Virus record (IMG/VR): IMGVR_UViG_3300030376_001126
Coordinates: 1 to 31,121 of that record
DNA: 31,121 bases
Direction: 5' to 3' (one strand)
From: a virus
Taxonomy: Duplodnaviria; Caudoviricetes
The notes under the pieces were generated by a model. The model saw only the letters and a list, made by a program, of their open reading frames with translations. It was not told the origin of the DNA and ran no database searches. How positions within the stretch are numbered: the first letter of the stretch is position 1; each line of letters starts with the position of its first letter. Shown here in pieces: positions 5,119 to 23,036 of the stretch. The position numbers were made by a program, and so were the translations under genes.

Positions 5119-5241
5119 AAACTTTATGGATATTTATAATTTATATTCTCTTATTTATATATTAAATAGACCCTAAGACAAAATTAATTCTAAATTGGCA
5201 ATATTGTCTTATTTTCTACTAATATAAACTTAGATTAAATT

Positions 5242-5481
5242 ATGCAAGAAGCATTTGAAGAATTTTTAAAAAATAATCCAGATTTATTGGAATCGTCACG
5301 CAAACCCTATTTTAAGAAAGACCCCGAAAGAGAAAAGCAGTTTAATGTTGCCTTAAAAAAATATAATGAGGGCTACCCTAGAAAAGTAATTATTAAATGG
5401 CTTAAGGTTTCATGTGGTTGGTCTTTGGCTGAAAAAACAATATCGGACTATTTAGGTGAATATGGCGAAAAAACAGAGTGA
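5242..5481 (+). CDS. Hypothetical protein, possibly small HTH-like
   Basis: 79-aa ORF overlapping the phosphoesterase start. Confidence 0.6.
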   Translation: MQEAFEEFLKNNPDLLESSRKPYFKKDPEREKQFNVALKKYNEGYPRKVIIKWLKVSCGWSLAEKTISDYLGEYGEKTE

Positions 5482-6544
5482 TTCTTTTGATGAATTTGCG
5501 GTAGAAGACTACCAAAAAATAATAGATGAAAACGACGATTTAAAGGCCACAAATAGACGAATTTTAAAGTCATTGGAAAAGGCTAAGCAAAAGAAAATAG
5601 ACCTCGTAAACGCCGTTTATACGGCTGTTAAGGACAATTTAGGCCTATTAGAGATACCTAAGGTAAAACCACCACCAAAAGATACAAGAAAAGCAAAAGA
5701 AGAAGTTGCTATTGCATTATTTAGTGATATTCAATTAGCCAAGGTTACACCAGATTACAATTCAGAGATTGCAGAACAAAGAGTCTTATATTATGCAGAC
5801 AAGATTATAGAGATTGCAAGAATACAAAGAAAAAGCCACCCAGTAAAAAAGGTATGTGTATTTGCCTTAGGTGATATTGTAGAGGGTGAATTAATATTTC
5901 CAGGGCAAGAACATCTGATCGATTCTTCCTTATATAGACAGGTTACAATCGATGGACCAAGAATCATGATTGGTTTTTTGAATAAATTATTAGCTGAATT
6001 TGAAGAAGTTGATTGTCATTTTGTTATTGGTAATCATGGTGCGTTAGGTGGTAAAAGTAGGCGGTCTTATGATCCCGAAACCAACGCAGATAGAATGCTT
6101 TACAAGATTGTAGAAATGGCCTATGAAGATAATAAAAGAATTAATTTTAATGTACCAGAGGGCGAAGGTGAAAGAAATTGGTATACAGTTGCAGATTTAG
6201 GTGAAAGATGTAAATTTTTCTTATTTCATGGCGACCAAGTAAGAGGTTTTGGTGGTTTTCCATGGTATGGCTTTGGTAAAAAGATATTAGGTTGGAAAGC
6301 TCTTGCAAGTGCAGGACTCATGGAAGATTTTAATTATGCATGTGCAGGTCATTATCACACGCCGAATACACAATATATTAATGATGTAAGGCTTTGGATA
6401 AACGGATCAACTGAATCTTATAATACATTTGCACAAGAACAGTTAGCCTCTATGGGTAGGCCATGTCAGTATCTTTTATTTGCCAAAAAAGGCCTTGGTG
6501 TTACAAGTGAATATTTGATTAATTTAGAGTTGGAAAAGTCTTAA
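5462..6544 (+). CDS. Calcineurin-like metallophosphoesterase with N-terminal coiled coil
   Basis: Motifs SDIQ, LGDIVEG, GNHG, FHGD, GHYH. Confidence 0.85.
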   Translation: MAKKQSDSFDEFAVEDYQKIIDENDDLKATNRRILKSLEKAKQKKIDLVNAVYTAVKDNLGLLEIPKVKPPPKDTRKAKEEVAIALFSDIQLAKVTPDYNSEIAEQRVLYYADKIIEIARIQRKSHPVKKVCVFALGDIVEGELIFPGQEHLIDSSLYRQVTIDGPRIMIGFLNKLLAEFEEVDCHFVIGNHGALGGKSRRSYDPETNADRMLYKIVEMAYEDNKRINFNVPEGEGERNWYTVADLGERCKFFLFHGDQVRGFGGFPWYGFGKKILGWKALASAGLMEDFNYACAGHYHTPNTQYINDVRLWINGSTESYNTFAQEQLASMGRPCQYLLFAKKGLGVTSEYLINLELEKS

Positions 6545-6573
6545 TATTAGATTAAAATGTAAATAGGTAATAT

Positions 6574-6714
6574 ATGGCTAAAAAATTAGTTGGTATTGAA
6601 AATGACGGCATTAAGGCTAAGGCTATCTACAATGACGACGGTAAATATTCATCAGTCGATTTAAAGGTAGGCATTACAACCCTTGATGAATTAGTCAAAG
6701 AAAAAGTTAGTTAG
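6574..6714 (+). CDS. 46-aa hypothetical protein (not in ORF track)
   Basis: AGGT RBS. MAKKLVGIENDGIKAKAIYNDDGKYSSVDLKVGITTLDELVKEKVS*. Confidence 0.65.
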   Translation: MAKKLVGIENDGIKAKAIYNDDGKYSSVDLKVGITTLDELVKEKVS

Positions 6715-6722
6715 TAGGTTAT

Positions 6723-7139
6723 TTGTTAGCTGAAGTTTTATTAGCTTGTAGTTTGTTGACCCCTACAACACAAGAGATTACACCTCAACAATTAATGTCT
6801 TATGTAAATTGTAAAAATAGAAACGAGATCATTATTGCTATGGAAGAATATATACCTTTATTTAGCCAATATTTTAAAGAAGAAGATTTAGAAACTGCAT
6901 TACGCATATCTTGGTGTGAATCAAGAGGCAAACCAAATGCAGTTGGTGTAAATAAAGACGGGTCAAAAGATGTAGGTTTGTGGCAATTCAATGACAATAC
7001 ATGGGCATGGTTAAAACCAAAACTTAAAATTACTAGTGATCGAACTGATACAAAAGTCTCAACTGCAGTCGCCTCATGGCTTTTCTATAATGACGGTTCA
7101 CATCATTGGAAACCAAGTAAATTTTGTTGGAAATACTAA
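6723..7139 (+). CDS. Lytic transglycosylase (SLT/lysozyme-like) with short N-terminal hydrophobic segment
   Basis: CESRG (catalytic Glu), GLWQF and terminal HW motifs. N-terminus LAEVLLACS. Confidence 0.85.
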   Translation: MLAEVLLACSLLTPTTQEITPQQLMSYVNCKNRNEIIIAMEEYIPLFSQYFKEEDLETALRISWCESRGKPNAVGVNKDGSKDVGLWQFNDNTWAWLKPKLKITSDRTDTKVSTAVASWLFYNDGSHHWKPSKFCWKY

Positions 7140-7143
7140 ACCT

Positions 7144-7186
7144 ATTTTAATCTTAGATTTGACAAGCATATAGCACCTGTTATTCT
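7144..7186 (+). promoter_or_regulatory. Promoter with palindromic box AATCTTAGATT abutting -35; probably leaderless
   Basis: Palindrome 7149-7159, TTGACA 7159-7164, extended -10 TGtTATTCT 7178-7186. GTG start lies 6 nt after the -10 with no RBS. Confidence 0.75.
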
Positions 7187-7192
7187 ACTTAT

Positions 7193-7594
7193 GTGAACAA
7201 CAAAAAACATACACTAAAACTTAAAGGGTCTGCCATAGACCTAACAGGATCGGGCGAAGAATACGCTATATCTTTAATTGCAGAACGAGAAAATAAATAT
7301 TATGACGATATACAAAAAGAATTTAACTCAATAAATCAAACATATAAAAAGGCTGGTAAAGGTTATACAATTACTTATCAGATTCAAACTCTAAGAGATT
7401 GTGAATTATTAGATGAATTCTTAAGTGGTAACTTAGGTTGGCAAGAAACACAAAACATGTTTGGTGAAGATTTAGCTAACAGACCAATGGAAAAATACCT
7501 TGATGATAAATTGGCAGAATTAAGAATCATAGAGAAAGAAATAAAAGATCAAGAAGACAACAACTGGTTTATAGATACAGAAAAGGTGTCATAA
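7193..7594 (+). CDS. Hypothetical early protein
   Basis: 133-aa ORF directly after the promoter. Confidence 0.7.
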   Translation: MNNKKHTLKLKGSAIDLTGSGEEYAISLIAERENKYYDDIQKEFNSINQTYKKAGKGYTITYQIQTLRDCELLDEFLSGNLGWQETQNMFGEDLANRPMEKYLDDKLAELRIIEKEIKDQEDNNWFIDTEKVS

Positions 7595-7619
7595 TAAAAG
7601 AATAGAGAAAGGACAAATT

Positions 7620-7823
7620 ATGGAAGAAACAATTAATGATTTACTTGAAAAATCAGAGAAGATATTTCAAGAAATAAATAAATTAAAAAAGACTATTGAT
7701 ATATCTGAACTATACGAAGATGACCCAGTATATCAAAAGTATGTAACACTAGATATAGCCAGTGACCACATTTGGGACGGTTACACTTATCTTGAACTAT
7801 TTAAAAAACAAATTAAGGGGTAA
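7620..7823 (+). CDS. Hypothetical early protein
   Basis: 67 aa with TAGAGAAAGGACA RBS. Confidence 0.7.
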   Translation: MEETINDLLEKSEKIFQEINKLKKTIDISELYEDDPVYQKYVTLDIASDHIWDGYTYLELFKKQIKG

Positions 7824-7825
7824 TT

Positions 7826-8071
7826 ATGATTTTAAAAGTTACAAGGGCTCAGCCATTTGTAAATCCATTTAGAGATTTTAAAGGCGAGGTTTATAAAAGA
7901 CTAATAGATAATAAACTGGTTTGTAGCAAAGAATCTGAACAGATTAGAAAATATGTGTATGAGTTTATTCAAAAAGGCTTTCCGATAGACCGAATGTCTT
8001 GTGATTGTGGTAAATATCAAAGAAAACATTACGCATATTATTATGAGTGGGCATTAGAATATCGCCCATAA
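7826..8071 (+). CDS. Hypothetical protein
   Basis: 81 aa, AAGGGG RBS, followed by a terminator. Confidence 0.6.
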   Translation: MILKVTRAQPFVNPFRDFKGEVYKRLIDNKLVCSKESEQIRKYVYEFIQKGFPIDRMSCDCGKYQRKHYAYYYEWALEYRP

Positions 8072-8097
8072 AAATGGTCTATTGCTAGACCATTTTT
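8070..8097. terminator. Intrinsic terminator (potentially bidirectional)
   Basis: Perfect inverted repeat aaaaatggtcta-ttgc-tagaccattttt. Confidence 0.85.
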
Positions 8098-8173
8098 GAT
8101 AACAGGGCGAAAACGAACGTTTCATTAAACATTTTAGCACAATATAGGGTACAATATTTGTAAAAAGGCATAT

Positions 8174-8818
8174 ATGAATATTGAAACCATTGAGGTAGGT
8201 AAGTTAAAACCACACCCACGAAATTACAAAGAACACCCAGAGCAACAGCTAGAACACATAATTAAATCAATAGAAGAACACGGCTTTTACAGAAACATTG
8301 TAATTGCAAAAGATAATACAATTTTGGCGGGTCATGGCGTAGTACAAGCTAGTAAATTAATGGGTAAACAAAAAGTACCTGTAATAAGATTAGATATAAA
8401 TTCAGATTCGACACAAGCATTAAAAGTTTTAACTTCAGATAACGAGATTGGCAATTTAGCCATGGTAGATGATAGACAATTAAGTGAGGTTTTAAAAGAT
8501 ATATTAGATGAAGAACTTGATTTAACTGGTACTGGTTTCAATGAAGATCAATTAAGTGCATTAATTTATACAACAAGAAATGCAGATGAAATACAAACAA
8601 TAGATGAGGCAAATGAGTGGGTTGGTATTGCTGATTATGAAAACAAACCCGATTCGATCAAAGTTATGGTGCATTTCGATACAGAAGAAGATAGAGAAAA
8701 CTTTATGCAACTGCTTGATAATCCGCATGTTAATTACAAAATGGGCAAGACATGGAAGATTTGGTACCCGGAAAGAGGTAACGAAGATCCTAGTTCAATA
8801 AGATTTGAACATGGATAA
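8174..8818 (+). CDS. ParB/Sulfiredoxin N-terminal domain protein with a C-terminal domain resembling partners of phage glycosyltransferases
   Basis: LKPHPRNY, SIEEHGF, ILAGHG, DN motifs. C-terminal EW.G...Y...I.V.VHF.TEEDR..F..L...TWKIWYP. Confidence 0.8.
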   Translation: MNIETIEVGKLKPHPRNYKEHPEQQLEHIIKSIEEHGFYRNIVIAKDNTILAGHGVVQASKLMGKQKVPVIRLDINSDSTQALKVLTSDNEIGNLAMVDDRQLSEVLKDILDEELDLTGTGFNEDQLSALIYTTRNADEIQTIDEANEWVGIADYENKPDSIKVMVHFDTEEDRENFMQLLDNPHVNYKMGKTWKIWYPERGNEDPSSIRFEHG

Positions 8819-9692
8819 GCCAAAGTACCCAGTCTATATTATTTCTAAAGGCAGAGCTGATGTAGGTTACACAGCAAATTTTATGTTGAAAGACAAAGTA
8901 GATTTTAAATTAGTAATCGAACCACAAGAATTTAAAGAATACGCAAGATTCTATGATGAAAAATTATTAATGGTTACCCCATTTAGCAATCTAGGTAAAG
9001 GCTCAATACCAGTAAGAAACTTTATATGGGAAGATTCAATTAAAAATGGTCATGAAAGGCATTGGTGCTTTGATGACAATATACATAGCATTCGGTATCA
9101 ATGGAACGGCAGAAGAATTAAATGCAATGGCAATCTAGGAATACATGCAGTTGAAAAATTTACTGATAGATATGAGAACATTGCAATTAGTGGCATGAAT
9201 TACACTTTTTTTGTACCACCCGGAACACGCAAACCTTATTATCAGAATTGTAGAGTTTATAGCAATCTTCTTATAAAAAACGATGTAGATTTTAGGTGGC
9301 GAGGTAGATACAACGAAGATACAGATTTATGTTTACAAGCCCTTAGTAAAGATTGGTGTACTGTTCTTGTCAATGCTTTTATGATCGAAAAAAATGCAAC
9401 AATGAGTATGAAAGGCGGGAATGCAACAGAGTTGTATGTTGGCGACGGTAGGTTAAGAATGGCTAGAGAATTAAAAGAGGCATGGCCTTATGTTGTAGAA
9501 GTAAAAAGAGTTTATGGAAGACCACAACATAGAATAAAATTTAATTGGCGACATTTCGATACACAGTTAAAGAGGCGAGATGATATTAATTGGGATAATA
9601 TAGAAGAAGAAAAAATAAAAATGAAGATCAATAAAGTAAACGACATAAAGAGTGAAAAGCTTAAGAAAGATGTAAAAAATTATAATGGCTGA
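8811..9692 (+). CDS. TET-associated/GREB1-like glycosyltransferase (putative DNA-modifying)
   Basis: YPVYIISKGR, RNFIW, HWCFDDNI, WRGRYNEDTDLCLQAL, MKGGN motifs match the phage TAGT family as I recall it. Confidence 0.8.
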   Translation: MDKPKYPVYIISKGRADVGYTANFMLKDKVDFKLVIEPQEFKEYARFYDEKLLMVTPFSNLGKGSIPVRNFIWEDSIKNGHERHWCFDDNIHSIRYQWNGRRIKCNGNLGIHAVEKFTDRYENIAISGMNYTFFVPPGTRKPYYQNCRVYSNLLIKNDVDFRWRGRYNEDTDLCLQALSKDWCTVLVNAFMIEKNATMSMKGGNATELYVGDGRLRMARELKEAWPYVVEVKRVYGRPQHRIKFNWRHFDTQLKRRDDINWDNIEEEKIKMKINKVNDIKSEKLKKDVKNYNG

Positions 9693-9774
9693 TGTCTTTG
9701 TTCGTGATTGTGATGAATGTTTAAAGCCTTATTGGAACGAAAACAATACCAGAGTTTGTCCAGATTGTGAATAA
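9685..9774 (+). CDS. 29-aa Zn-ribbon microprotein (not in ORF track)
   Basis: MADVFVRDCDECLKPYWNENNTRVCPDCE* with two CxxC pairs, overlapping the GT stop. Confidence 0.65.
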   Translation: MADVFVRDCDECLKPYWNENNTRVCPDCE

Positions 9775-9784
9775 ATTTCTGTTA

Positions 9785-9813
9785 TTGTCATAATCTTAGA
9801 TTAATATTAATTA
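9785..9813 (+). promoter_or_regulatory. Putative promoter/operator of the HTH-Sak-Rep operon
   Basis: TTGTCA 9785-9790 followed directly by TAATCTTAGATTA (palindrome core 9792-9802) and an AT-rich -10 region. Confidence 0.55.
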
Positions 9814-9817
9814 AATA

Positions 9818-9873
9818 GCTTGGTGGGGGTATGTCCTTTCTCTAAAAGAATGCACCTACTACCCCCATTGAGC
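9818..9873 (+). ncRNA. Structured RNA element / candidate sRNA with anti-SD loop
   Basis: 14-bp stem gcttggtgggggta/tacccccattgagc with three G-U pairs, favouring + strand RNA. 28-nt loop contains tgtcctttctcta. Confidence 0.5.
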
Positions 9874-9887
9874 AAGAGAGGAAAGAA

Positions 9888-10082
9888 ATGTTTGACCCGA
9901 TAAGTGTTGCAGAGATTGCAGAAATGCTTGGTGTTACAAGACAAAAAGTGGCAAGTCTTAAACATCATGGTAAATTACCAGAGCCAAAAAAGATTCTTAA
10001 ATGTGGACCTTTATGGGACGCAAAAGAGATAGCCGACTTTATAAATAAGGTTGGCATTACAGATAACAGGAGGAAAAAATGA
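9888..10082 (+). CDS. Small HTH DNA-binding protein (AlpA/excisionase-like)
   Basis: SVAEIAEMLGVTRQKV...GKLPEP...GPLW...EI..F. Confidence 0.85.
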   Translation: MFDPISVAEIAEMLGVTRQKVASLKHHGKLPEPKKILKCGPLWDAKEIADFINKVGITDNRRKK

Positions 10083-10561
10083 GTCGATCAACTCAAATAC
10101 AAATAAGCAAACCATGGAATAAAACCTTTGTAAAAAGTGTAAATAAAGGTTTTGGAAATATTGATTATGTTGAACACACACAGGTTACACAGAAATTAAT
10201 AGCCCTTATTCCAGATTTAGATATTACAACTGGCGATATTGTTTATGACAAGATCGAAGATGTAAACGGCGTTGCAAGAAAGTTTGTTACAGGCATGCGT
10301 GTAATACTAACTGGCACAGTAGACGGCCATAGAATAACAAGAGAAGATTACGGCATGTGCGATAAGCCTTTCTTTCATGAAAACCCTAATAAAGTGCAAA
10401 ACAATGGGCAGAGAATAAAAGAATGTATGTCGGACGGTATTAAAAGAGCGGCAATGCGTATGGGTGTTGGAATTGAACTATATGATACAGACGCATGGTT
10501 AAGTACTTACCTAGAAAAAACCAAAGACATTGAGGAGCAAATAGTCACAGAAGAAGAATAA
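10079..10561 (+). CDS. sak: Rad52-like (Sak) single-strand annealing protein
   Basis: DYVEH..V...L and K...SDGIKRAAMRMGVGIELY, the Rad52/22 signature. Confidence 0.85.
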   Translation: MSRSTQIQISKPWNKTFVKSVNKGFGNIDYVEHTQVTQKLIALIPDLDITTGDIVYDKIEDVNGVARKFVTGMRVILTGTVDGHRITREDYGMCDKPFFHENPNKVQNNGQRIKECMSDGIKRAAMRMGVGIELYDTDAWLSTYLEKTKDIEEQIVTEEE

Positions 10562-10570
10562 AATACTGAA

Positions 10571-11311
10571 ATGCAAATTGTCTCAGAATTTTACTTTTCT
10601 ATTGTACCAGAGTGGCTTATTGAATCTAATGTGTCCGATAATGCGTTAAGGGTATATTCCGCATTATACCGATTCGCAGATAAAGATGACGGCACATGCT
10701 GGCCTTCAATAGCCACCATTGGTGCAAAGTGTAATAAATCTAGCTCATCAGTTAAAAGAGCAATAAAAGAATTAAAAGAACTAGGTGCAATAGAGGTTAA
10801 AGAAAGATATATAGAAGATCAAGGGCAAACATCTAATCTTTATTTGTTAAAAATGAACCCTGCTTTTAAATCTGAACCCCCACCCCATACCAAAAATGAC
10901 ATGGGGGGTAGGTCAAATATGACACACAAACCAAAGTCATTTAACCAAAGTCATAATTACAAGACAGATTCAGATAAAGGTAAAATATATTTAGCTCTTT
11001 CTGAACACATGTACCAACCTAAAACCAAAAATGAAATATCAATATTTAATAAGGTCGCCAAAGATTTAGCAGAGATCGACGCAACGGCAGATGAAATAAA
11101 AGAAAAAATATATATTTACAAAAAGAAATGGCCAAATATTACCTTAACGCCATTTGCATTGTCTAAGAACTGGACATTGCTTGGTGAAATGTACGAGAAA
11201 GACAAACCACCTAAACAAAGAGATTGTGAGAAAGAGGGGCATGGCTGGGTTGATCTTGATGTAATATTTCATTGTAGATACTGCAAAGCAGAAAAAGTCA
11301 AAGAAGAATAG
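10571..11311 (+). CDS. Replication initiator protein (N-terminal wHTH, HTH_36-like) with C-terminal Zn-binding motif
   Basis: ALRVYSALYRFAD..GTCWPSIATIG...S.SSVKRAIKELKELGAI...SNLY. C-terminal C....H.W......CRYC. Confidence 0.85.
   Translation: MQIVSEFYFSIVPEWLIESNVSDNALRVYSALYRFADKDDGTCWPSIATIGAKCNKSSSSVKRAIKELKELGAIEVKERYIEDQGQTSNLYLLKMNPAFKSEPPPHTKNDMGGRSNMTHKPKSFNQSHNYKTDSDKGKIYLALSEHMYQPKTKNEISIFNKVAKDLAEIDATADEIKEKIYIYKKKWPNITLTPFALSKNWTLLGEMYEKDKPPKQRDCEKEGHGWVDLDVIFHCRYCKAEKVKEE
10847..10926 (+). repeat. Four iteron-like repeats, putative replication origin
   Basis: ttaaaaatgaaccc, ttaaatctgaaccc, ccaaaaatgaca, tcaaatatgaca spaced 19-24 bp in the linker after the wHTH. Confidence 0.5.
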
Positions 11312-11323
11312 TAAACTACCTAT

Positions 11324-11614
11324 ATGGCAGAAATAATTAACTGGGGGGCATTATCTGTTGGATTTTACCTCAGTAAATACCCCGAATTGAATAAATTAGA
11401 TTTAGAAGAAGTATTGCCAATGGTTGATACACAAGGCGGACTTGCGTTTAAATATGAAAATGATTTATATTTTATTGTATTAAATCTAAATAATGAATTT
11501 GAGGTGTCTGTGATAACTCATTTAAGAGACCTCTGCTACATAGAGCTACCAGACGCAGAAGACCTACTACATTTCTTAACTTCCTTAGATAATGGGTTTA
11601 AAATATATCAATAA
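11324..11614 (+). CDS. Hypothetical protein
   Basis: 96-aa ORF. Confidence 0.65.
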   Translation: MAEIINWGALSVGFYLSKYPELNKLDLEEVLPMVDTQGGLAFKYENDLYFIVLNLNNEFEVSVITHLRDLCYIELPDAEDLLHFLTSLDNGFKIYQ

Positions 11615-11615
11615 T

Positions 11616-11659
11616 ATTTTAATCTAAGATTGACATATACTCTAAAATCGGCCTAATAT
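11616..11659 (+). promoter_or_regulatory. Promoter with AATCTAAGATT box overlapping -35
   Basis: attttAATCTAAGATTGACA-18 nt-TAATAT (TTGACA 11630-11635, TAATAT 11654-11659). Near-identical to 13758-13801. Confidence 0.8.
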
Positions 11660-11689
11660 TCTTATATGAATATAGAGAAAGGCACAAAA

Positions 11690-11950
11690 ATGATAGATAT
11701 TAAAGAAGAAAAATATACATGTCATAGTTGTAACAAAACAGTTACTAAAGAAAACATTAAAAATAAACCTAGTATATTTTTTGCTAATTATTGTAAAGAT
11801 TGCGGTGTGCGTTGTAATTATTGCCAAATATCTTTAAAGATTTTAGGCTTTACAAAAGATACAGTCTTAGATCATACAAAAATTTGTAAAGAAAAAGAAA
11901 AATTTGATAATAACCAAAACGATTATTATTGGGATGACCCACATGTCTAA
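11690..11950 (+). CDS. Cys-rich zinc-finger protein
   Basis: CHSC, CKDC, CNYC, H...C. TAGAGAAAGG RBS before ATG 11690. An alternative leaderless start at 11666 is possible. Confidence 0.7.
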   Translation: MIDIKEEKYTCHSCNKTVTKENIKNKPSIFFANYCKDCGVRCNYCQISLKILGFTKDTVLDHTKICKEKEKFDNNQNDYYWDDPHV

Positions 11951-12128
11951 TAAACCAAATTTAGAGGGTAATTGTCAAGTAGAGAACTGCAATCGCCCAT
12001 TACATAGAAAAACTGGACATATTTTGTATAACGCAAACACAGATCGATATGACGCAATCTGCAAATTTTGTTTTTTACAAAACCCTAGTTATGGTAGAAA
12101 AACAAAAAAAGTCATACAAACAAATTAA
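11943..12128 (+). CDS. Small zinc-binding protein
   Basis: MSNKPNLEGNCQVENC...CKFC. ATG 11943 overlaps the end of the previous gene. Confidence 0.6.
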   Translation: MSNKPNLEGNCQVENCNRPLHRKTGHILYNANTDRYDAICKFCFLQNPSYGRKTKKVIQTN

Positions 12129-12147
12129 AATTAGAGAAAGGTAAAAA

Positions 12148-12456
12148 ATGACTGATATAAAAACAAATACAAGAAGAATAAAATACAAAAAGCCAGTAGA
12201 TAGAAAGATAAATCACTACCCCGATTCACTTGAGGCAGTTGATCTTATTATCGAAAATCTACAAAAAGAAATAGACAAGAACACAGATAATAAAAAAATT
12301 GGCAGACAAGACTGGTCTGATTTTCAATTTGCTAGGTGGGACGCAAAAAGACATTTGTTAAAAGAACAAATGAAATGGTTAAAAGAATTACGCCATGATA
12401 TTGAATTGGCTGATATTGAACATGATATGGCCATAGAGGGTACAGGTGGTTTTTAA
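12148..12456 (+). CDS. Hypothetical coiled-coil protein
   Basis: 102 aa with TAGAGAAAGG RBS. Confidence 0.7.
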   Translation: MTDIKTNTRRIKYKKPVDRKINHYPDSLEAVDLIIENLQKEIDKNTDNKKIGRQDWSDFQFARWDAKRHLLKEQMKWLKELRHDIELADIEHDMAIEGTGGF

Positions 12457-12524
12457 TGGTAGATATTGCATATTACAAAGAAAAATATAGAAAAAGCAAA
12501 AAAGGAATGTGGAAACATGCCTGA
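12456..12524 (+). CDS. 22-aa basic micro-ORF
   Basis: TAATG-coupled MVDIAYYKEKYRKSKKGMWKHA*, overlapping the start at 12517. Confidence 0.4.
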   Translation: MVDIAYYKEKYRKSKKGMWKHA

Positions 12525-12657
12525 TATTGTATTTATGGACATGGACGGTAACGAAATCCGCAAAGATTTAACTGATATCAATTCTTTAGATGATGTAAAA
12601 AAATCTTTTAAAGAACTAGACAAAAAGAGAAAGGACAAAAAAAATGGACAAGTATAG
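12517..12657 (+). CDS. Hypothetical small protein
   Basis: MPDIVFMDMDGNEIRK...; AAAGGA upstream. Start shortened from the track's TTG at 12466. Confidence 0.55.
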   Translation: MPDIVFMDMDGNEIRKDLTDINSLDDVKKSFKELDKKRKDKKNGQV

Positions 12658-12856
12658 TAACCCCGATGTATTTATTGTTTTGTTTGCCTTTGTAGCAATC
12701 ATGACAATGGGTGCATTACTTGGGGAAGTAGCGGTATGGGTAGCCAAAATGCTTGGTTATGAGTTTGAAGATCAAGAGTATATTAATACTGATTTTTACC
12801 AAAGATTGCAAGACGGTGAAGAACTTACTGCACAAAACATGTTTGGTAATGAGTAA
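12644..12856 (+). CDS. Single-TM membrane protein
   Basis: VFIVLFAFVAIMTMGALLGEVAVWVA; AGAGAAAGGACA RBS. Confidence 0.7.
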   Translation: MDKYSNPDVFIVLFAFVAIMTMGALLGEVAVWVAKMLGYEFEDQEYINTDFYQRLQDGEELTAQNMFGNE

Positions 12857-13112
12857 AGAATTTGTAACATACGAGGCCAATGAAAATAAACTTATTTGGC
12901 GACAGGTATTAGTCCAACAGGGTAAAGAATCTAAAGAAGAAACATGTATAGGTCAATTTGGTTTTTTGCCAACTGATGACGGTAAAAGTGCCGATATGGT
13001 GTTTATTGTACATAAAGACAATCAACCCGAACATGCAATTGCAATACCTAAAGAAGTGTTACAAACTGCATTAACAGAGGGTTGGTTTTTAAAAAGAGGC
13101 AACGGCAGATGA
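12849..13112 (+). CDS. Hypothetical protein
   Basis: Start MSKEFVTY at 12849 overlaps the previous gene end. Confidence 0.65.
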   Translation: MSKEFVTYEANENKLIWRQVLVQQGKESKEETCIGQFGFLPTDDGKSADMVFIVHKDNQPEHAIAIPKEVLQTALTEGWFLKRGNGR

Positions 13113-13471
13113 GTTACGCAGATACAATACAACAGATATTATCGGACGGCAGGTGGCATTGTGTACTTGATCTAATCGCAGAAACTGGTTTATCAGCACG
13201 AAATAGAATTAGTGAATTAAACAAAGACCATGAAGAAAAATACGCTAAGAAACGCTATATCGGTGAAAAATGTAAATTAGAATCTTGCAAACATAGATCA
13301 GAATTGTACATGTATAAATTAAACACTGGTGTTGTATCAGAAGAATTGGTATTTGGCGACCCTATTATTGAAGATATGGCTATGAATCGTGAAAATGAAG
13401 AATGGAATAATAAAACACCCGAAGAAAGACACGAATATATAAAGAATCTAAAGAAAAATTTTGGATTATGA
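13109..13471 (+). CDS. Winged-HTH-like DNA-binding protein
   Basis: ILSDGRWH...DL....GLSARNRISEL pattern; ATGA overlap. Confidence 0.6.
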   Translation: MSYADTIQQILSDGRWHCVLDLIAETGLSARNRISELNKDHEEKYAKKRYIGEKCKLESCKHRSELYMYKLNTGVVSEELVFGDPIIEDMAMNRENEEWNNKTPEERHEYIKNLKKNFGL

Positions 13472-13704
13472 CTTGGGTTGATGACATAGATAAAAGAATA
13501 AAGGTTTACAACAAAGACTTTAGAGATCGATTAGTTGTAGTAAAAGTAAAAAACAAAGAGATTGTAGGTAAAGAAGAACAATTGCAATTCTTTTTACCTT
13601 ACAATGAGTCGCAAAACAAGAGATTTATACAGAATTATATTAAAGATGAGTATAATAATAAGTACAAGTATATCAGTCACTATACTTGTAAGTATCACAC
13701 TTAA
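13468..13704 (+). CDS. Hypothetical protein
   Basis: 78 aa, ATGA overlap. Confidence 0.6.
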   Translation: MTWVDDIDKRIKVYNKDFRDRLVVVKVKNKEIVGKEEQLQFFLPYNESQNKRFIQNYIKDEYNNKYKYISHYTCKYHT

Positions 13705-13755
13705 TTTACCCCTTAGTGTATACGCCCCCTAAATTGCAGCTCGTAGGGGGTAAAT
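13704..13755 (+). other. Hairpin with two alternative C-rich partners for one G-run (terminator/attenuator-like)
   Basis: tagggggtaaat (13744-13755) pairs with atttacccctta (13704-13715) or with cccccta (13725-13731). Confidence 0.45.
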
Positions 13756-13757
13756 AT

Positions 13758-13801
13758 ATTTTAATCTAAGATTGACAAGCAAATAGATATTGGCCTAATA
13801 T
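13758..13801 (+). promoter_or_regulatory. Promoter with AATCTAAGATT box overlapping -35
   Basis: TTGACA 13772-13777, 18-nt spacer ending ggcc, TAATAT 13796-13801. Confidence 0.8.
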
Positions 13802-13830
13802 GGTTACATAAGATAGAGAAAGGCAAAACA

Positions 13831-14283
13831 ATGAGTACAAGATCAACAATAGAGGTAAGATATAGCGCAACTGCTACAAAAGATAGTGGTTTCGGCGAAT
13901 CTTTTTATAAACATCATGACGGTTACATTAAAGGTGGTTTAGGCGAACTTTTAATTCATTTTGTTACATATACAAATATGCCAAAAATGACATTTCTAAA
14001 TAGATTTCAAGAATTTGCAAAAGAACATAGAATTAATGCTGTTGCAGATGATGTAAATAGATTAGAAAAATTAGACAATGTTGAATCATATAGAGAACAT
14101 GGCGATACTGAATACCATTATACAATTATGCCAAGTAATAAGGGTTGGTTACTTACTGTGCAAGAAAGAGATTACACCGATTCTGCACAAAACGGCACAG
14201 ATCAAACAAAAACTGGACATTGGACAGATTTTGCACCAAGAAAAACAATTGGTAGAGCTGGTATTTTAATGCCTATTAACTAA
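13831..14283 (+). CDS. Conserved phage protein (MSTRS...Y.HHDGY..G.G..L family), monocistronic
   Basis: Has its own promoter, RBS and terminator. N-terminal motif recurs in phage hypothetical proteins. Confidence 0.7.
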   Translation: MSTRSTIEVRYSATATKDSGFGESFYKHHDGYIKGGLGELLIHFVTYTNMPKMTFLNRFQEFAKEHRINAVADDVNRLEKLDNVESYREHGDTEYHYTIMPSNKGWLLTVQERDYTDSAQNGTDQTKTGHWTDFAPRKTIGRAGILMPIN

Positions 14284-14298
14284 AAAGAAACGCAAAAA

Positions 14299-14330
14299 CC
14301 GAAAGCCCTGCATAATGTAGGGCTTTTTGG
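14299..14330 (+). terminator. Intrinsic terminator
   Basis: aaagccctgca-taa-tgtagggctttt(t). Confidence 0.85.
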
Positions 14331-14792: not shown

Positions 14793-14872
14793 TGGACAAA
14801 GAAACATGGATAATTGTTGACGGTCATAGAGTTCATATATCATGGTTACCAGAGAAAGAGGAAGAAGAATAA
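14792..14872 (+). CDS. 26-aa micro-ORF
   Basis: MDKETWIIVDGHRVHISWLPEKEEEE*, TAATG-coupled at both ends. Confidence 0.6.
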   Translation: MDKETWIIVDGHRVHISWLPEKEEEE

Positions 14873-15813
14873 TGCCAATTTTTGATGAAATTGTACTTGA
14901 TGACCTAGAAGATGAGCTAAATATACACGAAAATAGCGACTATAAAAAAGAATTAAGAATGGCTAATGACCCTATTGATGAAGAAGTATTAAAAAAGCCA
15001 GTTGATCTAAGAATATTAAGTCTAGGCGCAGGTGTTCAATCGTCTACATTATTGATGAAGATATACAATGGTGTAATAAAACCAGTAGATTATGCAATAT
15101 TTGCAGATACAGGTAATGAGCCACAAGAGGTTTACGATTGGTTTGAGTTTATTACAGATAAAGTAAAAGATAAGATAAAAATTTTAATAGTAAATAATGA
15201 TCGAAATACTGGCGATATAACAAAAGATTTATTAAGTTCAGAGGGTTTCCATGCGTCTATACCTGTTCATGTAAAAAATGCTAGTGGTAAAAAAGGTATG
15301 ACTCTAAGAACATGTACAGATAGATACAAGATTCAACCAATAAATAAAAAGATAAGAGAGATACTAGATGTAAAAACATTAAGAGGTCAATTGGTTGAAA
15401 TAGTTATGGGTATATCTTTAGATGAAATACAGAGGGTTAAAAGACCACCAAACAAATGGGCAATAAACACATACCCATTAATTGAGCAAAGAATAACAAG
15501 AGAAATGTGCCTAGATTACTTTAAAGAATTAGGTTTACCACAACCACCAAAGTCTGCCTGTATAATATGCCCTTATCATGACAATACAGAATGGTTAAGA
15601 ATAAAAGAAAATAACCCAAAAGAATTTGAATCAGCAATAGAATTTGATAAACAACTCAGAGAAAAAAAAGATAGTACATTTGTATCTAAGTTAGACGGTG
15701 AATTGTATTTACACCCTAAATTAATTCCTTTAGATCAAGTAAATTTAAAAGAACGCAAAGATTACCAATTTAGTCTTTTTGATGATGAGTGCGACGGTTA
15801 CTGCGGTGTGTAA
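14872..15813 (+). CDS. PAPS-reductase/DndC-like PP-loop (adenine nucleotide alpha hydrolase) protein with Cys clusters
   Basis: LSLGAGVQS (PP-loop variant), FADTGNE, CT..YKI.PI, SACIICPY, C-terminal ECDGYCGV. Confidence 0.8.
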   Translation: MPIFDEIVLDDLEDELNIHENSDYKKELRMANDPIDEEVLKKPVDLRILSLGAGVQSSTLLMKIYNGVIKPVDYAIFADTGNEPQEVYDWFEFITDKVKDKIKILIVNNDRNTGDITKDLLSSEGFHASIPVHVKNASGKKGMTLRTCTDRYKIQPINKKIREILDVKTLRGQLVEIVMGISLDEIQRVKRPPNKWAINTYPLIEQRITREMCLDYFKELGLPQPPKSACIICPYHDNTEWLRIKENNPKEFESAIEFDKQLREKKDSTFVSKLDGELYLHPKLIPLDQVNLKERKDYQFSLFDDECDGYCGV

Positions 15814-17118: not shown

Positions 17119-17169
17119 TGGCTCAACGCAAGATAGTTTTTAGGTGCGTTTCTATCTTGCCGAGGGCCA
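17119..17169 (+). promoter_or_regulatory. Structured 5' leader of the head operon
   Basis: Stem gcaagatag (17128-17136)/ctatcttgc (17152-17160), outer stem tggctc/gggcca, competing pairing aacgca/tgcgtt. GAAAGG RBS at 17174. Confidence 0.5.
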
Positions 17170-22797: not shown

Positions 22798-22829
22798 TAT
22801 CGCACTCGTCTTTCGAGTCGGGTGCGGTA
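22798..22829 (+). other. GC-rich RNA hairpin capped by UUCG after the capsid gene
   Basis: tatcgcactcg-t-ct-TTCG-ag-t-cgggtgcggta, with G-U pairs and no U tail. Confidence 0.6.
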
Positions 22830-22847
22830 GATCAAAGAAAGGCAAAA

Positions 22848-23036
22848 ATGAAATTAGCAAAAGATGTTTACATAAATGATGAAGGCATTGTAAAAGAATC
22901 TGCCAAAGGTCTTCCTACTGGTTGGGCAAAAGGTAAATTACTTGGTCGTAAAGGACAAGAAATATCCGATGCACAAGCTAAAGAGTGGGGAATTGGTAAA
23001 AAGGCTAAAGCACCTGCTGAGAATAAATCTAAGTAG
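22848..23036 (+). CDS. Small basic head-associated hypothetical protein
   Basis: AGAAAGG RBS before MKLAKDVY. The track's 22791 start runs through the hairpin. Confidence 0.7.
   Translation: MKLAKDVYINDEGIVKESAKGLPTGWAKGKLLGRKGQEISDAQAKEWGIGKKAKAPAENKSK

Follow-up and report, generated by a model that had tools for sequence, protein, structure and literature searches.

The phage antisense RNAs described in the available excerpts of PMC5320573 and PMC12197685 have either a single phage target or targets among the genes of the host. Among them, C4 of phages P1 and P7 lies within a longer transcript or leader, is processed from that leader by RNase P, and has a role in prophage immunity. As these excerpts describe it, C4 folds into three stem-loops and carries two lineage-specific single-stranded seeds, one of which pairs over an RBS, and its loops bind neighboring sites of one target. 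The mycobacterial RNAs B11/6C, which are chromosomal, display C-rich seeds in loops and repress many mRNAs by pairing with generic G-rich RBSs (PMC10470900, in excerpt). A third system is SAS/ESAS of the cluster K phages (PMC3203893, PMC11373665, PMC12699233), which the available portions of these papers describe as an extended RBS repeat that precedes nonstructural genes, is tied to SigA-like promoters with an inverted repeat, and has one inverted copy per genome. In these same portions, the role of SAS is left open and no antisense RNA from the inverted copy is proposed; in four K1 phages, Pope 2011 (PMC3203893, in excerpt) reports one inverted SAS that has no gene with it, and what binds the sequence is left open there.

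Here we describe a leader hairpin (9818–9873, + strand) in a small marine phage. The window (the whole 31,121-nt stretch that was analyzed, a virus record estimated to be 95% complete with 34% G+C) contains head, tail, and lysis genes and a nonstructural block from ∼5200 to 14300. On the evidence of sequence comparison, the hairpin is real and conserved as an RNA element, and its two complementarities co-evolve; we regard the stem, the complementarities, their co-variation, and their co-loss as established at that level. Seed 1 (9832–9844, + strand) is antisense to an early RBS tag, and seed 2 (GAATGCACCTA, 9848–9858, + strand) is antisense to a loop in the leader of the portal gene. The hairpin would work like C4, with two single-stranded seeds, one of them facing an RBS, inside a longer leader, yet it is not a member of that family: there is no Rfam C4 match, a single stem with a large loop stands in place of three stem-loops, and, whereas C4 loops bind neighboring sites, the seeds here point to different gene classes, the seed-2 partner at 17141 lying far from the five tags. 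It shares loop-displayed seeds with B11/6C but faces a private phage tag that co-evolves with the seed, and it has a loop–loop partner in addition. The closest anatomy is that of SAS/ESAS. The window likewise has a nonpalindromic extended-RBS repeat at nonstructural starts linked to a promoter and an inverted repeat, here in the form of palindrome–TTGACA cassettes, and our computations place the inverted SAS copy in a hairpin loop in K1 and K5 phages. The two differ in that they have no sequence similarity (the tag and the 11-bp palindrome are unlike the 13-bp cluster K consensus and the 17-bp repeats given in the excerpts) and in the position of the K hairpin, which belongs to a late leader and precedes no HTH gene. 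The described system was not found in print in the open-license literature searched. The part of the Fremin 2023 supplements that was searched gave no match (PMC10690425); either hairpin may be among its 10,006 candidates.

The hairpin precedes an excisionase-like HTH gene (9888–10082, + strand; PHROG 597/2620, E ∼1e-6; Pfam HTH_17 below cutoff), for which a PDB profile search returned nothing useful. This gene is the first of a predicted operon that continues with a Rad52/Sak-like annealase and then an O-like replication initiator (10079–11311, + strand). The predicted operon promoter (9765–9794, + strand) has a −35-like element at 9765–9770 and a TG-extended −10 ending at 9794; it scores 9/12 with the TG in a consensus scan, and its −10 region is retained in the relatives L001–L006. 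The relatives of the window phage are found on viral and metagenome contigs. An 11-bp palindrome (AATCTTAGATT, 9792–9802), a candidate operator, covers the transcription start that we predict for the operon. It is the fourth copy in the window, and the same palindrome occurs in relatives; the other three copies abut the −35 of the predicted TTGACA promoters that head the target transcripts (palindrome plus promoter at 7149–7186, 11621–11659, and 13763–13801, all + strand). At the first of these promoters a GTG start (7193) coincides with the predicted transcription start, so the first gene is likely leaderless, and the tag is on the second gene. Elsewhere in the window we noted, between the glycosyltransferase gene and the operon promoter, an unlisted ORF of 29 codons that encodes two CxxC motifs (9685–9774; also in L001), as well as possible DNA-modification genes, namely, a ParB-like gene beside a glucosyltransferase-like gene (8174–9692) and a PAPS-reductase-like gene between the terminase subunits (14842–15813).

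Folding bears out the 14-bp, G-U-containing stem that the original prediction, made from the window's sequence, had placed upstream of the HTH gene: 9818–9831 pairs with 9860–9873, including three G-U pairs, at −24.5 kcal/mol (z = −3.1; 1 of 200 shuffles was as good). The stem had been said to enclose 13 nt (9832–9844); the actual loop is 28 nt long, and the seed is partly paired inside it. In an alignment of 16 hairpins picked from the type A leaders seen by then, two-sided changes are present at 9 of 11 pairs and 93% of cells are paired, compared with 44–57% in slid controls, and none of 500 shuffles reaches this level of covariation. The structure is conserved with an accessible seed, as in trans-acting anti-RBS sRNAs. 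It does not look like an intrinsic terminator, which would have a short loop and a U-tract after the stem: the loop is 28 nt long, the 3′ flank is purine-rich, and the terminator scan did not list it. Rfam gave no match at E ≤ 5 for the window or at E ≤ 1 for sets of 13 and 11 loci, and none near the gathering score. Coding explanations were rejected as well: the ORF that begins within seed 2 is 5 to 19 codons long, and its ATG is missing from L170 and L175, and a minus-strand ORF (9807–9968) is interrupted in relatives. The one RNA run yielded a single 36-nt piece that maps elsewhere than the hairpin.

We surveyed 45 distinct HTH upstream regions, of which 22 have this leader, here called type A (16 core, 2 without seed 2, and 4 with other loops), 4 are type B, 6 are type C, and 13 have no such leader. 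Type A spans the whole of an HTH+Sak tree of 33 rows, in which types B and C are derived and group, with weak support, as sister to the clade of the window. When viral contigs were scanned with a pattern for the loop alone, 96 loci were returned, and the HTH gene or the stem was present only in loci of the known clade. In type B (L011, L165, L121), an unrelated long hairpin occupies the same slot before the HTH gene. Type C leaders (L120 ∼6060–6150; L123, L124, L126, L149, L154) consist of a pair of hairpins; the inner loop of the second, CAGGCAACTG, is invariant, and we found no Rfam match for the leader and no target for that loop. What looked like an anti-RBS hairpin before terS in type C loci turned out to be the 3′ end of a coding sequence and was set aside as a probable chance match. 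In L291 (∼2550–2680) and L326 (∼1200–1330), a distant HTH gene is preceded by yet another structured leader, the fourth, which differs from the others and has long stems.

Within the window, the reverse complement of seed 1 recurs, as predicted, as a 13-nt match at 7603–7615 (before ORF 7620; 13 bp, −20.7 kcal/mol) and a 12-nt match at 12626–12637 (before ORF 12644). Three further matches had been given as 10 nt, which holds for 11673–11682 (before ORF 11690) and 13814–13823 (before ORF 13831); the one assigned to 12132 is really 11 nt long (12131–12141, before ORF 12148). All five tags are on the + strand upstream of small nonstructural ORFs with ATG starts, in agreement with the original prediction, which had placed three of them in transcripts of the palindrome–TTGACA promoters; in fact all five lie downstream of those promoters. 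The tag is present at 5 of 22 nonstructural starts and at 0 of 27 structural or lysis starts (Fisher p = 0.014), and the four late GAAAGG starts lack the extension; the early enrichment whose absence would have spoken against the original prediction is present. Three of the 49 start coordinates are approximate, none near a tag. The motif AGAGAAAGG has 5 copies on the + strand against 0.38 expected under a third-order Markov model, and when all 49 starts are ranked by duplex energy the five tagged ones lead, with a gap of 3.2 kcal/mol to the sixth; because closed loops limit helix length, these energies are upper bounds. Among 31,093 + strand 28-mers, only those overlapping the hairpin loop match at least 3 starts at 10 bp or more, and none of 20,000 shuffled loops reaches 5 starts. 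Opening seed 1 from inside the loop costs ∼3.9 kcal/mol. Separately, simultaneous pairing with the two seeds (−20.8 kcal/mol) may be open, in the window, to a start that follows the major capsid gene (22820–22848).

The loop might instead act in cis as an anti-SD that sequesters the HTH gene's own RBS, a fold-back that the original prediction also allowed. That RBS lies 1–3 nt past the stem, and in L001 and L003 it forms a perfect 8-nt complement. When forced, however, the pairing reaches only −9.6 against −24.5 kcal/mol in the window and −13.4 against −28.0 kcal/mol in L001, a cost of ∼15 kcal/mol in each. The HTH gene's RBS (−10.6 kcal/mol) ranks tenth of 49 starts, and the type B loop matches distant tags, not its own RBS. 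We consider such a switch very unlikely.

Loop and tag shift together among relatives. A loop-by-genome matrix of 12 genomes resolves into four blocks, in which each lineage has its own tag and a loop matching it. The window, L001, L003, and L004 form the AGAGAAAGG block (window-group loop UGUCCUUUCUCUA, tag TAGAGAAAGGACA); L170 and L173 pair loop GUUUCCUUUC with tag GAAAGGAAAC at 3 and 5 starts, L166 pairs loop UGCCUUUCUU with tag AAGAAAGGCA at 2 starts, and type B (L011, L165, L121) pairs loop CUCCAUUUCU with tag AGAAATGGAG at 1–3 called starts per locus. The automatic gene caller missed some tagged starts, for example in L003. The loops pair over 10–13 bp, including the lineage-differing bases on the start-codon side, and a one-base insertion in type B is mirrored in loop and tag. 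The B tag is absent from both strands of 18 type A loci, and the A tag is absent from 5 type B loci. A cognate start of at least 10 bp exists for 10 of the 12 loops, and two or more exist for 8; the loops of L177 and L182, both partial loci, have no cognate 10-bp upstream match. A generic anti-SD, which may differ from that of the host, gives at most 8 bp and no 10-bp start. Off-block 10-bp matches connect the L166 loop with two window starts and one in L003, and the L170 loop with one start in each of five other genomes. We also observed that the L177 loop (L177:528–555) matches the start-codon region ATGAAAGAAAA of two early genes (L177:2358, 2596) rather than an RBS, that the L180 loop matches an AAACGGG RBS used in L177 and L179, and that in L170 (9385–9790) the gene ending just ahead of the hairpin is promoter-proximal and bears the tag too, an arrangement that would give direct negative feedback.

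The loop of the original prediction is thus conserved in the form of matched loop–tag pairs, and its proposed trans pairing with a shared early RBS draws support from this lineage co-variation and from the early/late enrichment. Two loops without a cognate match aside, seed and target co-vary as those of a trans-acting anti-RBS sRNA do. Most tags follow a palindrome cassette, which raises the possibility that they are by-products of duplicated promoter–RBS cassettes and that the loop is a 16S-tail mimic or a protein site, with no RNA–RNA pairing at all. Shared G-run RBS motifs do occur without an antisense copy (7 in L182, 2 in L159), so a repeated RBS alone needs no sRNA. Such an origin does not account for 10–13 bp of pairing that extends to lineage-specific start-side bases or for the mirrored type B insertion, and it leaves seed 2 unexplained; we think it exceedingly improbable.

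The lineage specificity of the seed/tag pairs would also suit superinfection exclusion, in which the RNA of a resident phage blocks the early and portal genes of related phages that enter later and the seeds diverge between lineages as immunity types. C4 of P1/P7 offers a precedent, with its specificity in a variable loop (PMC5320573, in excerpt), and the position in the leader of an excisionase-like HTH operon fits as well. Against this, a scan of the 47 window ORFs found no integrase and no repressor in a record estimated to be nearly complete, and GTDB genomes yielded no relative by HTH or Sak patterns or alignments; we see no sign of lysogeny in the sequence of the window phage. Superinfection exclusion, which is compatible with our best explanation rather than exclusive of it, seems improbable to us.

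Beyond the original prediction, we found a second conserved loop element and its putative partner at the portal gene. The loop block that holds seed 2 is more conserved than a spacer should be. Its partner belongs to a hairpin between terL and portal (17119–17168, + strand), with a 9-bp inner stem (17128–17136/17152–17160) and a 15-nt loop (17137–17151). Within the window group this loop does not vary, and the changes in the stem are matched on its two sides. The paired stretch of the loop (17141–17151, + strand) is followed by the portal RBS (17174) and start (17187). The loop motif occurs in 26 of 56 distinct portal leaders; another 7 have a variant hairpin, and the other 23 have neither. 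Seed 2 is complementary to the portal loop over 11 bp in the window, 14–15 bp in L133, L001, and L004, and 11 bp in L170. An 11-bp complementarity also exists between L177 and its overlapping relative L206 (different contigs, with a 92% overlap over 754 nt), both sides differing from the window; L182/L205, a 79% relative, are likewise different contigs. In type C, a 10-bp version lies in a single-stranded linker. Nonperfect complementarity takes the form of G-U pairs in the window, L170, L177/L206, and L120, and pairing is imperfect in L149 and in the type B locus L165. Ranked among all sites of a locus, the portal site comes first in 6 of 15 cases, second in 3, and third to sixth in 5, and it is within the first four in 13; in the window, where the seed-2 core 7-mer has 6 copies on the + strand, it ranks second. 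In L166 the portal site is absent, seed 2 and the portal hairpin both being lost. Sixteen loci hold both positions, and the two elements are both present in 11 and both absent in 5 (L166, L114, L129, L158, L159). L306 has the portal hairpin without the leader directly before its HTH gene. Of 5 leaders in which the portal loop was blocked, only the 2 from types B and C show a change in the predicted opening of the RBS; the window leader does not. RNA cofolding, a method that cannot model loop–loop pairing, returned no binding. In the portal leaders of L120, L165, L303, and L305, we noted that the portal loop has an anti-SD-like 5′ half, which varies along with the RBS of the portal gene itself, and that translation of portal may be coupled to terL through an alternative fold that involves the end of terL.

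The same pairings admit another logic at the portal gene: the late leader could serve as a trigger or sponge, or portal translation could be activated by seed 2. As a trigger, late RNA would bind seed 2 and unmask seed 1, and early genes would be shut only once late transcription starts. The 5′ part of seed 2 masks seed 1 within the loop through an inner helix that is kept with changed bases in relatives, and occupying seed 2 lowers the cost of opening seed 1 from 3.9 to 0.2, 6.5 to 2.8, and 3.2 to 0.5 kcal/mol. Given this drop of ∼3 (2.7–3.7) kcal/mol, seen in 3 of the 4 leaders, a role of the late leader may instead be to help unmask seed 1. The cluster K1 anti-tag loop, moreover, is located where late transcription begins, the inverted-SAS hairpin lying in the interval in which Adephagia late transcription starts. 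L004, however, shows no gain (5.4 to 5.1 kcal/mol), the mask is small relative to duplexes of −15 to −21 kcal/mol, seed 1 of type B sits in an open loop, and L166 retains seed 1 without seed 2. We judge this alternative logic unlikely, if worth keeping in view.

Because both matches change in step across related phages, the hairpin probably serves as an RNA switch for the timing of early and late protein production. Our best reading is a leader-derived antisense RNA that would repress first-wave genes and dock on a late leader; it is likely, in our estimate, that it acts in trans as a timing RNA, with seed 1 blocking five first-wave genes and seed 2 docking on the portal leader. Upon entry, host polymerase would read the three strong promoters and the HTH promoter, and the hairpin would be transcribed from the promoter ending near 9794. 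It may act while part of the operon leader or as a 5′ fragment of ∼75 nt, which, in the absence of a U-tract after the stem, would have to be released by processing. As leader RNA accumulates, it would cover the tagged RBSs and block translation of the five early genes, and the tags at 11673 and 13814 lie near predicted 5′ ends, which would ease pairing with a closed loop. The HTH protein would bind the palindromes, silencing the same promoters and its own and thereby capping synthesis of the RNA. Seed 2 would dock on the portal-leader loop just upstream of the portal RBS, and head-gene translation would be held down until late transcripts outnumber the RNA, a release by titration. Repression as the effect on portal is the least certain part, and we offer it tentatively, at odds somewhat below even. 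It is also conceivable, though short of an even chance, that the whole is an RNA-only early-to-late switch in which no protein couples the stages, and that its early half is a widespread phage strategy that explains cluster K SAS.

In cluster K, the 40.8 kb of Anaya that were analyzed contain SAS 16 times in forward and once in inverted orientation. The inverted SAS forms an exposed loop in Anaya, in Adephagia, and in a local fold of LilPharaoh, and the K hairpin has matches in 140 phage records. In the K5 phages OkiRoe and Rando14, it lies immediately upstream of terS and its stem is perfect; DarthP and PhelpsODU have a degenerate form, and Keshu and Chris have none at that site. Pixie (K3) has 17 SAS cores and no anti-copy in the whole genome. 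The exact loop is present in 5 of the 10 K phages examined. Anti-SAS hairpins were located in the late leaders of Anaya (L183:39850–39905), Adephagia (L185:1312–1370), OkiRoe (L336 ∼1000–1040), and Rando14 (L339 ∼1130–1175), the K1 hairpin being part of a structured, Rfam-negative intergenic RNA of ∼300 nt.

The function of the hairpin as a phage antisense RNA is inferred. The naturally orthogonal seed/tag pairs are usable parts for translational control. Since K1 and K5 phages share an exposed loop antisense to SAS, a cultured test system is at hand in M. smegmatis, and the same anatomy there may give a direct answer to the role of SAS, which is left open in the available portions of papers of 2011, 2024, and 2025. 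If our reading is true, one RNA would address a whole early gene set, by way of a self-made tag, together with the first head gene, and would provide a compact means of timing lytic growth.
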